Below, piece after piece: positions 9,147-34,823 of a DNA stretch of 64,000 nt. This DNA is from Thermoplasmata archaeon (GTDB lineage Archaea > Thermoplasmatota > Thermoplasmata > Lutacidiplasmatales > UBA184): assembly GCA_049585415.1 (NCBI GenBank), contig JBAUZT010000019.1:10152-74151 (forward strand), in the 5' to 3' direction. Positions within the stretch are counted from its first letter, which is position 1. The number at the start of each line of letters is the position of its first letter. The notes under the pieces were generated by a model. It worked only from the letters and a program-made list of their open reading frames with translations, ran no database searches and was not told the origin of the DNA. The position numbers and the translations under genes were made by a program.

Positions 9147-10397
9147 CGCGTCCACGTCGCGCACTCGGACCGCGCCCTCCCTCAGCAGCGCCTCCCGGGT
9201 CGCAGCCGCCCGCCCCTGCGCGAATTCGAGGGAGACGCCCGAGGGCGGGTCGGCCAGGAAGACCGGGACCCTCGGTGCGAAGCCCCGGACGTCCTCGAGG
9301 TTCGCGAGATTCGAGGGGCCAACCGGGAACGGCGCCACGACGATTGCCTCGGCGGCATTGAGCAGGATTCGATGTCGCGCCCGGACCTCCGCGCTGAGGG
9401 GTGCGAAAGGTATCTCGACCGCGGTCAGTACCCCGAGCGATTCCGCGGCTTCCGTATCGGAATCGAAGAGCGAGAGCGCGCCGGCGGTCACCTCGTAGCC
9501 CGCTTCGACCAGCCGACGAAGGTACGGCACTCCGGTTCCGCCACCCGCGACCACATGGACCCGGGGTCGGTGAGAGAGCCGAACTGCGGCCGGCTCGGGT
9601 CCGAGGGGCAGCTGGGGGATGAGGTAGGGGAGACCGGTGGCTGCATCCCGTCGCAATTCGGCCACGACCCCCCAGACCCGGGCGAGGAGCTCGGGAGAGA
9701 GGATCGCGGAAGGAGTTCCCTCGGCCACGAGCTGACCGTGCGAGAGCACAGCGACCCGGTCCGCGAACCGGGCGGCGAGATTCAGGTCGTGCAGCGCGAC
9801 GATCACCGCCCGCCCGTCCCTGCGAGCGATCCGGCGCACGCGCACGAGTAGGTCGAGCTGGTGACCGACATCGAGGTGCGCCGTCGCCTCGTCCAGTAGC
9901 AGGATGGGAGCTTCCTGAGCGAGGACGCGCGCGAGGCGGGCCCGCTGTCGCTCCCCTCCGCTGAGTTCCAGCATTCCTCGGTCCGCCAGGGCAGTCACGT
10001 CGGCGTCGGCCAGCGCCGCCGTCACCGCGCGCTCGTCCGCCTCTCGCTCGGGGGTCAGCGGAGGAATGTGGGCGAACCGGCCGTACCGAACGTAGTCCCG
10101 AACGGGGACGTTGTCCCCCAGCGGTTCCTCCTGGGGCATCCATGCTAGGGCTCGCGCCCGCTCCCGCAGGGAGAGTTCCGACAGGAGCCGGCCGAGGATC
10201 CGGACCGACCCGCCCGAAAGATGTTCGAGGCCGGTGAGCGCCCGGAGGAAGCTCGACTTTCCGGAGCCGTTCGGTCCGGCGAGGGCCAGCACCTCCCCCT
10301 CGGGGACCTCGATGGAGACCGAGCGAACCGCAACCTCGTCGTGATACCGAACCGAAACCGCATCGGCCTGCACCGGAAGGACCGGAGGAGAGGTCAT
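9093..10397 (-). CDS. ABC importer ATP-binding protein (FecE/BtuD-like) with a roughly 180-aa C-terminal extension
   Basis: Walker A GPNGSGKSS, signature LSGGERQR, Walker B LLLDEATAHLD and an H-loop. The start is 10397 (MTSPPVLP), overlapping the permease stop with ATGA. The upstream part of the 772-aa track ORF is antisense noise. Confidence 0.8.
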   Translation of the reverse strand: MTSPPVLPVQADAVSVRYHDEVAVRSVSIEVPEGEVLALAGPNGSGKSSFLRALTGLEHLSGGSVRILGRLLSELSLRERARALAWMPQEEPLGDNVPVRDYVRYGRFAHIPPLTPEREADERAVTAALADADVTALADRGMLELSGGERQRARLARVLAQEAPILLLDEATAHLDVGHQLDLLVRVRRIARRDGRAVIVALHDLNLAARFADRVAVLSHGQLVAEGTPSAILSPELLARVWGVVAELRRDAATGLPYLIPQLPLGPEPAAVRLSHRPRVHVVAGGGTGVPYLRRLVEAGYEVTAGALSLFDSDTEAAESLGVLTAVEIPFAPLSAEVRARHRILLNAAEAIVVAPFPVGPSNLANLEDVRGFAPRVPVFLADPPSGVSLEFAQGRAAATREALLREGAVRVRDVDALVAAMAARFRAPDAPTP

Positions 10398-11542: not shown

Positions 11543-12598
11543 TCAGCCCGACGGAACGGGTGCGAGCGTCGGGTGGAGCCAGTACTGGAGCCAGGGGAGT
11601 TCGAGCAACATGGTGGGGTCCGCCTCGGTGATCACGGTGACGTCAATCGGGATCTTGGAACCGTTGAGCTGATCCCAATAGGGGGCCGTCGGCCAAACGG
11701 ACGGGGTCTCGTTCGCTACGAGATACGCGTCGTTCCAGCTGGTCCCGTAGAGAATGATCGACGGTTGGTCCGAGAGAACCACCGTGGCGTTGATCTCGGC
11801 GTACTCGAGAGGAACCCCTGCGGAGATGCTCGAACCGGCCGCGAGGTCGATCAACGACTGCCCGAACGTGCCCGGTCCGTACGTATAGTAGCCCAGGTCG
11901 TCGAAGTAGTATGTCAGCAGGACGGAGGGGATGGGCGTCGCATTGTCGGCGAGGAGATTGTCAAAGGCGGTCGCGTTCGTCAGGGCCCCCTCGAGCGACG
12001 CGTCGAGCGCCGTCGCCGCTGGGTGCGAGCTCGGGAACAGCTCGGCAACCAGATTGACATCTCCGACGATTCCGTCGAGCGTGGACGGGGCCAGGATTAC
12101 GACGGGAAGATTGTAGGTGGTCGTCAACGTGGCCACGTCGGTCGCGGACGTGATCGTGGTGGCGAGGACCAATTGAGGGTTGAGCGTAGCGACCTGCTCC
12201 GTGTTCAAGCTGGGGTAGTCCGTGACACAGAGTGAGCTCGTCAGGTTCCACTCCGCCGTCTGATTCGGAGAGTACTCGTTCAAGATACCTCCCGTCAGTT
12301 CCGGCGTGCAACCGATGCCGACAACCCGGTCACGCAGTCCCAGTCGGAACACGATATCCATGACGTTGGGCGCGAGCACCACGATACGGCTCGCGTTCGA
12401 CGGAGCCACGACCGTCCGGCCGAGATCGTCGACGACGGTGACCGTACCCGGACCTGGAGTGCTGCAGCAGGCGGAGCTCCGGAGCTCGAAGTACGCGGCG
12501 GTGCCGACGACCGCGACACCCGCGGTTAACAAGATCGCGACGACCAGGAGAGTGGTGGAAATCGTTCTCGGTGTGGGCGCTGGAGGATTCAATGCCAT
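11543..12598 (-). CDS. ABC transporter substrate-binding protein (cluster A, FecB/BtuF-like), membrane anchored
   Basis: N-terminal TM/signal (MALNPPAPTPRTISTTLLVVAILLTAGVAVVG), Thr-rich sequon-rich mature domain. Position in the operon with the permease and ATPase supports the call. Confidence 0.65.
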   Translation of the reverse strand: MALNPPAPTPRTISTTLLVVAILLTAGVAVVGTAAYFELRSSACCSTPGPGTVTVVDDLGRTVVAPSNASRIVVLAPNVMDIVFRLGLRDRVVGIGCTPELTGGILNEYSPNQTAEWNLTSSLCVTDYPSLNTEQVATLNPQLVLATTITSATDVATLTTTYNLPVVILAPSTLDGIVGDVNLVAELFPSSHPAATALDASLEGALTNATAFDNLLADNATPIPSVLLTYYFDDLGYYTYGPGTFGQSLIDLAAGSSISAGVPLEYAEINATVVLSDQPSIILYGTSWNDAYLVANETPSVWPTAPYWDQLNGSKIPIDVTVITEADPTMLLELPWLQYWLHPTLAPVPSG

Positions 12599-12716
12599 GA
12601 TAACGTAGGCAATTACTATTGAGCATAAAGGTTCCGAGCGAGGCCGAGCGGCCGCGCGCCCTCGGTCGGTCCCTCCCAGCAAAGGATATCTTGTCGGTCC
12701 ACTCCGAAAACTCGGA

Positions 12717-12882
12717 GGGAGCATAGGCTAACTTGGCAGACCAGCGGGCTCCAGTCAGGGTGCGGTCACTCGTGCCCTGTGAATATGGGTCTGCGGAGGA
12801 ACGCGAGCGGCGTTCCTGTGACGATTGACTGGAGCGCGCGGAGAGACCCGCATATGGGGGTTCAAATCCCCCTGCTCCCACC
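12717..12882 (+). tRNA. tRNA-Trp (anticodon CCA) with a roughly 91-nt intron (12755..12845) at the canonical 37/38 position
   Basis: Acceptor GGGAGCA/TGCTCCC, T-arm GGGGG-TTCAAAT-CCCCC, anticodon stem GCGGG/CCCGC, loop CUCCAG with the intron inserted after position 37. The CC of CCA is encoded. Confidence 0.7.
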
Positions 12883-12894
12883 TCTCCCGCCGCG

Positions 12895-14151
12895 CTAGTA
12901 CTTCATCCGTCGAACGCCCGGCAGAGCGAAGGCCAGCACCCCCGCGACGAGGAAACCGACCCCGACCTCGATCCCGAGACGGGTCGGGTTGCCACCGAGC
13001 GCGATGTCGCTGATGACCAGTGCCCCGATCGAGCCGCTGATCCCGGGGAAGAGGTACATGTTCGAAAACAGGCGGCCGATCTGCTCTGGCGCGACCGAGC
13101 CCCGAAAGAAGACGAACTTCCCGCTAGTGTACACCGTGGTGGCCACTCCAACGACGAACCATGCGGCCGCCGCCAGAAGCAGCGTTGGCGGCAGTGTCAC
13201 CGCCGCGACGAACGCGGCCCCGGCCGCGAGCAACGAAACGCTGAGCACGAGTCCAACCCGTTGCCGAGGGTTCCACGATCCGAGCGCAAGACCCGCGACG
13301 ACGCCTCCGACGACCGACGCCGTGAACAGGATCGCATAGCCGAGAGTCGAGTCCGCGTACTCGACGGTGGCGATCAGCGCGATGAGGATTGCCGTCGCGC
13401 TAACGAAGAACCCTTCGATCGCATCGACGGCCGCGAGCTGGAGGAGCGGTCGACCGACCCCTCCGACGACGAGCTTCCATCCGTCCCGGAAACTCTCGAA
13501 GAACGTCGACGGCGCCGTCGCGGGCGGAGAGATGCGGAGCGGCATCGCGAGCGCCGCCGCCGCGAGCAGCAATGCGGCGTACAGGTACATGCCGCCCGCG
13601 GCTCCCACGACGAGGAGAAGGTACCCCCCCACGCCGTAGCCCAGGAGAGTGAGGGCTCCGCCGACCGCGCCCGAGAACCCCGACGCGGCGAACTGTTCGT
13701 CGGGCGATAGCAGCACACCGGGTGCAGCATTCTGCGCTGCCCAGCTCATGTCCCACAGCAGCGAGACGAGTGCGACGAGCGCCAGGAGCAGCTCGATCGT
13801 GAGGAAGCGGTCGTGGTAGCCGAACCCGATCACTGCCACGGCGAACGCCTGCACGGGGTAGGAAAGGAGGAAGATCGTCCGCTGATTCCGGACCCGGTCG
13901 ACGAATGGCCCGACGAGGAACGTGGCCGTGTAGCACGCGTATTCAACGAAGAGAACGGCGCCGACATCGAGGAAGTTGTGGAAGAGCGTGACGGTGAGCC
14001 AGACGATCGAGATGGTGTACACCGAGTAACCGACCGTCGACGCGTTCGACGAAGCGAGGAAGATCAGATACTGGCGGTTGCGGAGCACTGTGCGGTAGGC
14101 TCCTTCCGTGCGACCGTCCGTGATCCTCCCCTCCCCCGGATGTGCCGGCAC
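12895..14151 (-). CDS. MFS transporter
   Basis: About 12 predicted TM helices, Gly/Ala-rich, with an MFS-like profile. Confidence 0.65.
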   Translation of the reverse strand: MPAHPGEGRITDGRTEGAYRTVLRNRQYLIFLASSNASTVGYSVYTISIVWLTVTLFHNFLDVGAVLFVEYACYTATFLVGPFVDRVRNQRTIFLLSYPVQAFAVAVIGFGYHDRFLTIELLLALVALVSLLWDMSWAAQNAAPGVLLSPDEQFAASGFSGAVGGALTLLGYGVGGYLLLVVGAAGGMYLYAALLLAAAALAMPLRISPPATAPSTFFESFRDGWKLVVGGVGRPLLQLAAVDAIEGFFVSATAILIALIATVEYADSTLGYAILFTASVVGGVVAGLALGSWNPRQRVGLVLSVSLLAAGAAFVAAVTLPPTLLLAAAAWFVVGVATTVYTSGKFVFFRGSVAPEQIGRLFSNMYLFPGISGSIGALVISDIALGGNPTRLGIEVGVGFLVAGVLAFALPGVRRMKY

Positions 14152-34711: not shown

Positions 34712-34823
34712 ATCCGGCGCGTCAGGTGAGCTTCTCGGTCTTAGCCTTTCGGACGACCGCGATGCCGCCGGTGGTGGCCCGCTCCCCGGGAAACGCCATC
34801 TACCCCGCTCGGGTCGCCGGTGC

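Follow-up and report, generated by a model that had tools for sequence, protein, structure and literature searches.

A tRNA-Trp intron of a Thermoplasmata archaeon as a divergent homologue of the box C/D guide introns

Does the intron of a tRNA-Trp gene in a Thermoplasmata archaeon encode a box C/D guide RNA for its own tRNA, and which of the elements that such a guide is thought to require are present in it? The gene lies in a stretch of 64,000 nucleotides (positions 10,152 to 74,151, forward strand, of contig JBAUZT010000019.1, assembly GCA_049585415.1), here called the window, whose own numbering is used throughout. A sequence-only reading of the window had proposed a tRNA-Trp(CCA) gene at 12717-12882, interrupted by an intron that may act as a guide of the type known from Haloferax volcanii. 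The locus is confirmed here as a real archaeal tRNA-Trp(CCA) gene of a Thermoplasmata lineage, and sequence comparison confirms its intron as a homologue of the known family of tRNA-Trp-intron box C/D guides, lineage-specific and partly degenerate rather than a new system. It is moderately probable, in our judgement, that the gene is expressed, that its intron descends from a euryarchaeal box C/D guide intron and was remodelled in this lineage, and that it guides modification of C39 by the mechanism set out below. A complete box C/D RNA with two kink-turns is not demonstrated: box D is out of register, box C is degenerate and there is no terminal stem.

The gene, its intron and the internal kink-turn

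The stretch 12717..12880 on the plus strand matches the Rfam tRNA model RF00005 at 41.8 bits (gathering score 29), with an insert of about 95 nucleotides in the anticodon loop, and ARAGORN in intron mode reports tRNA-Trp(cca) with a mature length of 75 nucleotides and an intron of 91; in its default mode ARAGORN reports no tRNA-Trp at 12717..12880. The spliced sequence gives a normal, intact cloverleaf. With the canonical placement at 37/38 the intron is 12755..12845, as had been proposed. ARAGORN sets the boundary two nucleotides earlier, an ambiguity due to the AG present at either junction; the mature tRNA is identical in both cases. The gene as first delimited was two nucleotides too long: it ends at the discriminator A73 (12880), and the CC that follows (12881-12882) does not belong to an encoded CCA, since trailers vary among relatives. 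An overlapping minus-strand open reading frame (ORF), 12330..12881, was rightly dismissed as spurious; it has no Pfam match and overlaps, in another frame, the tRNA and a conserved periplasmic-binding-protein gene.

The tRNA-Trp-intron box C/D guides of 26 Euryarchaeota have been aligned in PMC2584109 (Additional file 4) in the order terminal stem, box C, an arm ending in ..GGGUCUN, box D', linker, box C', an arm ..UGGAGNN, box D and terminal stem. The window's intron aligns with these 26 element by element, and alignment with about 170 further related loci likewise bears out the proposed kinship with the H. volcanii type. Its elements run U, hairpin 1, a box C-like GUGAAUA, the arm UGGGUCUG, D' CGGA, hairpin 2, C' UGACGA, the arm UUGACUGGAGCG and the tail CGCGGAGAG (Table 1, whose coordinates were checked against the window sequence); GUGAAUA and GUGACGA, the motifs picked out by the sequence-only reading, thus exist and stand at the box C and box C' positions of the alignment. 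Shared with the family are the tRNA-Trp(CCA) site at 37/38, a D' arm directed at nucleotide 39, a 3' arm at C34 and the junction, and a C'/D' kink-turn that can be formed. The family assignment rests on alignment to published sequences because a search of 12600..13000 at E<=10 found no Rfam C/D or small RNA (sRNA) family, only the tRNA and chance matches; Rfam appears to hold no model for tRNA-Trp-intron guides.

A scan pattern derived from the family (CTCCAG..GGGTYNNCNGA..TGANGANNNNNTGGA) matches the window once and 100 shuffled versions not at all. Scanning of the GTDB species genomes with it gave at least 120 loci and of metagenomes 120 loci, and about 170 related loci were aligned. The genome loci listed come from Methanomicrobia, Methanosarcinales, Archaeoglobi, Thermoplasmatota, Poseidoniales, Hadarchaeia, Bathyarchaeia and one Heimdallarchaeote. 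Among these matches, 13 high-GC 'Thermoplasmata archaeon' metagenome-assembled genomes (MAGs) match the window's design exactly and have exons almost identical to its own, and the metagenome scan adds 48 loci of this clade, mostly from soil and peat. The clade set used below consists of the 59 distinct introns, from high-GC Thermoplasmata genomes and metagenomes, among the matches listed. The same FecCD/Peripla_BP_2 ABC-transporter genes adjoin the tRNA in most clade genome loci; since their proteins are only 40-62% identical to those of the window, the clade must be deep.

Within this deep clade the D' box CGGA, the C' box UGACGA, the core of the 3' arm GACUGGAGCG and a 12-nucleotide tail GCGCGCGGAGAG are invariant. 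So is the GGGUC core of the D' arm; the full GGGUCUG, common to the published guides of A. fulgidus, Methanosarcina and others, occurs in 53 of the 59 introns, the others having GGGUCAG, GGGUUUG or GGGUCGG. CGGA stands at the D' position in 25 of 120 genome loci among the matches listed, and the C' box is identical to that of haloarchaea, while the two nucleotides before it vary (CG, GA, UG or CA), as expected for the L1 and L2 positions of a kink-turn. The two hairpins change in sequence and keep their pairing. Hairpin 1, found in all 59 introns, pairs in register in 96% of cells of the clade alignment, compared with about 46% when slid by one, with up to six pair types per position and compensatory changes in RNAalifold; hairpin 2 pairs in register in 98% of cells (about 53% when slid), with GC, AU, CG and UA pairs at the same positions. 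RNAalifold counts 13 pairs with double changes. Together D', the 7-base-pair (bp) stem of hairpin 2 and C' (CGGA, stem, UG-U-GA-CGA) give the tandem G-A and A-G pairs and then C-G and G-C. This internal C'/D' kink-turn, of textbook geometry, is the only canonical one in the intron.

The guide architecture that had been proposed is borne out for the internal C'/D' kink-turn, which is formable; the terminal C/D motif is non-canonical, with no D at 12 nucleotides and no terminal stem. The box C-like element lies eight nucleotides from D' in the window and seven to eight in the clade, against 12 in most family members, and its NGA is found in 45 of the 59 clade introns, the rest being A/U-rich and variable. 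A consistent kink-turn partner for it was sought and not found. One candidate, a kink-turn with hairpin 1 as canonical stem and G37-U-C-A as pseudo-D, was rejected as unsupported: the 2n position would be C and not G, and hairpin 1 needs the CA/UG pairs. Where the listed loci have a D box (CUGA in 47, AUGA in 25, CCGA in 7), it nearly always follows C' by exactly 12 nucleotides, as it does in the published alignment. Instead of an in-register tetramer of the CUGA, CCGA or AUGA type with its GA end, all 59 clade introns have CGCG at this position (12837-12840 in the window), and the only D-like CGGA starts 14 nucleotides after C'. Reading GAGA (12841-12844), 16 nucleotides after C', as D was rejected, as a G30-G mismatch would then fall on the target position. 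A terminal stem is impossible here: the 5' flank, which in canonical relatives is the partner of the 3' flank, folds back on itself as hairpin 1, and the D-like CGGA is followed by GAG alone.

The H. volcanii pre-tRNA-Trp intron guides the 2'-O-methylations Cm34 and Um39 (Clouet d'Orval 2001 and Singh 2004, as cited in PMC4090602 and PMC2584109). Its published pairing takes in intron nucleotides, and both intron and methylations are reportedly dispensable for growth. The window's intron shares with it the tRNA-Trp(CCA) location at 37/38, the order C, arm for 39, D', hairpin, C', arm for 34, D, the identical C' UGACGA, a D'-C' linker that is a hairpin with a true kink-turn, a 3' arm that pairs the exon-intron junction and so acts on the precursor, and a separate GGAG near the intron's 3' end that forms the splice helix with CUCC. 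The H. volcanii intron has 103 nucleotides, C GGACGA, D' CUGA, a D' spacer of 16 nucleotides, D CCGA exactly 12 nucleotides after C', a terminal stem GCGCC/GGUGC, an inner splice helix h' made by both intron ends, and U39, whereas the window's has 91 nucleotides, C UGAAUA, D' CGGA, a spacer of eight, CGCG at the D position with CGGA two nucleotides past it and fused to the splice strand, no terminal stem, a self-contained hairpin for h', and C39.

Closer in taxonomy are the guides of the Thermoplasmatales, T. acidophilum, T. volcanium, P. torridus and F. acidarmanus (PMC2584109), which belong to the same class of organisms. Like the window's intron, theirs begin with UCA.., and their box C departs from the consensus by U/A at positions 5-6 (UGAUUA in theirs, UGAAUA in the window). 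The arm cores also agree: GGGUCAU or GGGUCUG precedes D', and UGACUGGA follows C'. They are about 58 nucleotides long and have 12/12-nucleotide spacers, D' and C' being joined by a short loop (K-loop), D is AUGA at 12 nucleotides and there is a short terminal stem; by comparison, the window's clade has two hairpins added, a shortened 5' arm and no in-register D. With canonical archaeal box C/D sRNAs (PMC6009581) the intron shares the C'/D' kink-turn with tandem G-A pairs, box-adjacent arms and a D' arm in register for C39, and it differs from them, with their two K-motifs and 12-nucleotide spacers, in its spacers of eight and 14 nucleotides, in a terminal C/D kink-turn that is not demonstrable and in being embedded in a tRNA intron.

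Table 1. Features of the tRNA-Trp locus in window coordinates
Feature	Coordinates	Strand	Remarks
Promoter element AAAGGATATC (BRE/TATA-like; BRE, B recognition element)	12681..12690	+	27-36 nucleotides upstream of the mature 5' end; promoter function suggested by sequence
tRNA-Trp 5' exon (positions 1-37)	12717..12754	+	RF00005, 41.8 bits; ARAGORN intron mode
Anticodon stem, 5' strand GCGGG	12744-12748	+	
C32	12749	+	
C34	12751	+	
Anticodon CCA	12751-12753	+	
Intron, 91 nucleotides, canonical position 37/38	12755..12845	+	RF00005; ARAGORN; bulge-helix-bulge geometry
Intron nucleotide 1, U	12755	+	
Hairpin 1 (CAGGGUGCGG-UCAC-UCGUGCCCUG)	12756..12779	+	starts at intron nucleotide 2, right 3' of the 5' splice bulge
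Box C-like GUGAAUA	12779..12785	+	5/7 match to RUGAUGA; aligns with published box C
D' antisense arm UGGGUCUG	12786..12793	+	
Box D' CGGA, variant of CUGA/CCGA	12794..12797	+	same alignment position as the family's CUGA/CCGA
Hairpin 2 (GGAACGC-GAGCG-GCGUUCC)	12798..12816	+	canonical stem of the C'/D' kink-turn, 7 bp
Kink-turn bulge UG	12817-12818	+	UG+U with box C' is 12817..12824
Box C' UGACGA	12819-12824	+	heptamer GUGACGA, 12818-12824
3' antisense arm UUGACUGGAGCG	12825-12836	+	with the extra CG, to 12838
Tail CGCGGAGAG	12837-12845	+	
CGGAGAG	12839..12845	+	D-like CGGA 12839-12842 overlaps splice strand GGAG 12840-12843; then bulge nucleotides AG
tRNA-Trp 3' exon (A38 to A73)	12846..12880	+	C39 is 12847; RF00005; ARAGORN

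Antisense arms, splicing and the proposed mechanism

In box C/D guides the methylated nucleotide pairs with the fifth guide nucleotide upstream of D or D' (e.g. PMC6009581). By this rule the D' arm selects C39, as G(-5) of GGGUCUG|CGGA pairs with it; the sequence-only reading had named U39, and position 39 is C here. The arm pairs with C35-G42 of the spliced tRNA over eight contiguous bp including a U-G, and with AG|ACCCG of the precursor over seven, the precursor still being paired because the intron ends in AG, like A36-G37. The same reading had treated GGGUCUGCGGAG (12787-12798) as a single antisense segment spanning the junction and also as a strand of the splice helix. Neither role holds up: the segment is D' arm plus D' box, its sole part antisense to the tRNA is GGGUCUG (against C35-A36-G37|A38-C39-C40-C41), its CGGAG would pair with CUCC only through a two-nucleotide bulge, and the splice helix uses a different GGAG. 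Guide pairing at both 34 and 39 had been expected, and arms for both are indeed present; the second of them, UUGACUGGAGCG, which pairs with CUCCAG|UCA, had been overlooked.

This 3' arm pairs with G31-C32-U33-C34-C35-A36-G37-U-C-A, a 10-bp duplex at the exon-intron junction that appears in both the minimum free energy (MFE) structure and the RNAalifold consensus. The clade-specific CG that follows adds pairs to G29 and C28, so that 13 of 14 positions are paired, the exception being a G30-G mismatch. Family-wide, intron nucleotides 1-3 covary with the arm (CGG/CCG, UUA/UAA, UCA/UGA, UUG/CAA, UGG/CCA and AAC/GUU), 101 of 108 loci among the matches listed being fully paired, which shows that the arm pairs the unspliced junction, as published for H. 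volcanii. The invariant GCGCGC of this region is self-complementary and also pairs with positions 27-32 with one mismatch; since everything there is invariant, covariation is of no use in choosing between these partners. As a separate observation, the GCGG at 12836-12839 (within GCGCGCGGAG) is a copy of anticodon-stem G27-G30 and is predicted to pair with C40-C43 (12848-12851) when the 3' arm holds the 5' strand; the pairing (RNAalifold 126-129 with 136-139) is invariant, hence without covariation, and in the modelled structures it may be part of a conformational switch.

For splicing, the intron presents an hBHBh' motif at 37/38, namely a bulge-helix-bulge (BHB) of two 3-nucleotide bulges with a 4-bp helix between them, at which endonuclease cleavage is predicted. 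Helix h is the anticodon stem GCGGG/CCCGC, the central helix H pairs CUCC (32-35) with GGAG at 12840-12843 (4/4 pairs), the 5' bulge is A36 G37|U (AGU) and the 3' bulge AG|A38 (AGA). The classical h' between the 5' and 3' ends of the intron was rejected, with 0 bp in 14 of 14 clade members. Because hairpin 1 begins at intron nucleotide 2, it is taken to replace this helix, and in the resulting model the guide body would hang off a three-way junction. The guide conformer is predicted at -83.0 kcal/mol (MFE) and the forced BHB conformer at -74.9 kcal/mol; methylation before splicing, followed by a conformational switch, therefore fits these energies.

On this basis the following mechanism is proposed. 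L7Ae, Nop5 and fibrillarin would assemble on the C'/D' kink-turn, and the 5' arm GGGUCUG would pair with A38-C41 (and with AG or CAG upstream) and direct 2'-O-methylation of C39, a prediction with good support. The 3' arm would pair with the unspliced junction, from G31 to intron nucleotide 3 and thus into the anticodon stem, opening the stem and presenting C34. Methylation by this arm at C34 (or C32) is uncertain, because the terminal C/D is degenerate and its sole D-like tetramer is two nucleotides out of register. The precursor would then switch to the BHB conformer, with CUCC/GGAG as central helix and hairpin 1 as inner helix, and the endonuclease would cut at 37/38. Since some nucleotides belong both to the D-like CGGA and to the splice helix, assembly of a guide ribonucleoprotein (RNP) at the 3' end and splicing would be mutually exclusive. 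The D-like box may nevertheless be incidental, because a C before any GGAG gives CGGA (as in H. volcanii too) and because the related metagenomic intron L190, described in the next section, has no in-register D.

Reduced relatives and alternative readings

Several relatives are built still more sparingly. L190 (metagenome contig Ga0080006_1111785) is a tRNA-Trp gene with the window's exons and an intron of 119 nucleotides; it shares the window's D' arm, D', hairpin 2, C' and 3' arm, its D' antisense is longer (11 bp), and it is without box C and, with the tail GGCCGAGGAGAG, without an in-register D. From its sequence it looks like a sister form without both terminal boxes. In Bathyarchaeia (L001, L004, L021, L022, L030, L042, L061, L075, L118 and L120) and Hadarchaeia (L054, L056, L072, L073 and L080) the intron consists of arm, D', short hairpin or loop, C' and arm. 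No box C is visible upstream in these listed introns, and the tetramer 12 nucleotides after C' is without GA (GUCA, GUCU, GUGC, GCUA and others); to judge by sequence, they have the look of a stable version of the intron guide with a single kink-turn. L033 (7166-7223; an Asgard MAG, Candidatus Heimdallarchaeota) is a canonical-looking tRNA-Trp intron guide in the order UGAACU, 12-nucleotide arm, CUGA, loop, UGAUGA and arm ..UCUGGA.

Further sequence variation concerns the 3' arm. It reads ..CUGGAAC in L070, L025 and L086, from low-GC Thermoplasmata, and in the published introns of T. acidophilum, T. volcanium and P. torridus. Such arms set A opposite C32 although the exon is CUCCAG, and the BHB strand has the same A-C opposition, a mismatch that appears consistent in those low-GC Thermoplasmata and Thermoplasmatales lineages. 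Of the other pattern matches, L055 and L117 are chance hits in bacterial coding sequence without a tRNA, and L076, titled 'bacterium', bears the clade's tRNA-Trp and neighbour genes, so that its bin label is probably wrong.

For the C39 guide mechanism speaks the retention of D', C', the arm cores and the tail while the hairpins compensate and the neighbour proteins have diverged as far as stated above. Several points weigh against it: the D' arm makes only 7-8 bp compared with 9-12 in canonical members, the C-to-D' spacer of 7-8 nucleotides instead of 12 is a misfit with the geometry of a two-kink-turn RNP, and no Rfam C/D family matches. Moreover, the retention of NGA in 45 of the 59 introns of the clade argues for some remaining role of box C, and a description by a single kink-turn may be too strict.

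How far the reduction goes is a separate matter. It is possible, and we put it forward tentatively, that the clade's guide has been reduced to one internal kink-turn and two arms, the same loss having apparently occurred independently in Bathyarchaeia, Hadarchaeia and L190; that the 3' arm then works by a mechanism outside the two-kink-turn models, by retargeting to C32 or purely as an RNA chaperone that unwinds the anticodon stem to allow methylation of C39; and that the overlap of CGGA with the splice helix couples RNP assembly and splicing as mutually exclusive events. The 3' arm could accordingly be read in three ways, as a canonical Cm34 guide despite the shift, as a guide retargeted to C32, or as a chaperone arm that does not methylate. 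In vitro, a single functional kink-turn and the antisense arm next to it can be enough for methylation of a specific site. Synthetic half-mer C/D RNAs and the H. volcanii sR-tMet are reportedly single-kink-turn guides, in which a C/D motif is combined with a D arm; in the window, by comparison, it is the internal C'/D' motif that is intact, and 3' of C' there is a further conserved arm that has no D box.

A fully canonical dual guide, in which GUGAAUA and the 3' CGGA would form a second kink-turn and two sets of L7Ae, Nop5 and fibrillarin would modify C34 and C39 as in H. volcanii, seems unlikely. C-like and D-like elements are both there, the GA of box C is mostly kept and conservation of the 3' arm is perfect; a related lineage of Thermoplasmata (L057, L158) uses CGGA as a true D box, 12 nucleotides after C' and followed by a terminal stem; and haloarchaeal members tolerate D' spacers of 16-19 nucleotides. 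However, the window's CGGA is 14 nucleotides after C' and not 12, and the fifth-nucleotide rule would then select C32 and not C34. There is also no terminal stem, the 5' flank being locked in hairpin 1 with only GAG after CGGA, and the C-to-D' spacer is short. CGGA follows from any C placed before the H-strand GGAG, and the CGGAG at the end of the H. volcanii intron is not its D box; L190 and the introns of Bathyarchaeia and Hadarchaeia, for their part, keep the 3' arm without any D box.

If CGGA at 12839-12842 were nonetheless the D box, the clade-specific CG insertion would have shifted the site by two nucleotides, so that Cm32 replaces Cm34. This retargeting is improbable. The 14-nucleotide spacing is fixed in all 59 clade introns, the inserted CG extends pairing to C28 and G29 (13 of the 14 positions before the D-like box are paired), and Cm32 is natural in H. 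volcanii tRNA-Trp, where a protein enzyme makes it. Yet the G30-G mismatch would lie two nucleotides from the would-be target, the objections to a terminal C/D kink-turn are the same as for the dual guide, Cm34 would be lost, and nothing indicates that the Cm32 enzyme is absent from the clade.

That the intron is a relic, its guide function gone and its elements persisting only by shaping the precursor for splicing or folding, is more improbable still. The degenerate terminal boxes, the short D' arm and the non-canonical spacers would agree with it, as would the dispensability of the H. volcanii intron and its methylations; but D' CGGA, C' UGACGA, the kink-turn stem and both antisense cores are invariant in a clade whose neighbour proteins have diverged so far, and splicing needs only the BHB, about 20 nucleotides, which would leave a conserved kink-turn and a C39 antisense unexplained. 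Finally, a chance tRNA-like sequence or non-functional pseudogene, suggested by the silence of ARAGORN's default mode, is in our view already refuted by conservation, as the Rfam score is above threshold, the cloverleaf is intact, the exons are near-identical in the 13 genome and 48 metagenome loci listed, and synteny and promoter are conserved.

Promoter, neighbouring genes and significance

The promoter-like box upstream of the gene recurs as AAAGG[A/C]TATC at the same distance in related loci, amid otherwise unconserved GC-rich sequence, and its conservation in the window and in relatives supports transcription of the tRNA-Trp gene. A box similar to AAAGGATATC, AAAGGCTAAG, stands upstream of the window's tRNA-Ala, and AAAGG(A/C)TA, about 30 nucleotides upstream of tRNA-Trp (12681-12690) and of tRNA-Ala (motif at 34740-34750, minus strand), is probably the lineage's BRE/TATA consensus for tRNA genes. 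The sequence upstream of tRNA-Pro is different (CTCAAATAG). The long ORF at 11543..12724 probably starts further in, because its first eight nucleotides overlap the tRNA. Directly downstream, on the minus strand, lies an MFS-type transporter gene (12895..14151) that has no counterpart in 13 syntenic loci, several of which have glyoxalase and flippase-like genes directly after the tRNA; it looks like a local insertion beside the tRNA gene. The neighbouring genes (FecCD/Peripla_BP_2 ABC transporter, MFS and glyoxalase) show no functional connection with the RNA.

Guidance of a tRNA's methylation by its own intron belongs to the textbook knowledge of archaeal RNA, and to that extent the locus mainly confirms a correct annotation that tools run in bacterial mode overlook. 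The modest novelty is that an entire uncultured, high-GC clade of Thermoplasmata strictly keeps the internal kink-turn and both arms without an in-register D, a terminal stem or 12-nucleotide spacing. The features lost are those considered necessary for a C/D RNP to act at two sites, and other phyla are even more reduced. These introns thus offer a natural test set for how much box C/D architecture guided methylation needs, and for the competition between guide binding and BHB splicing within a single precursor.

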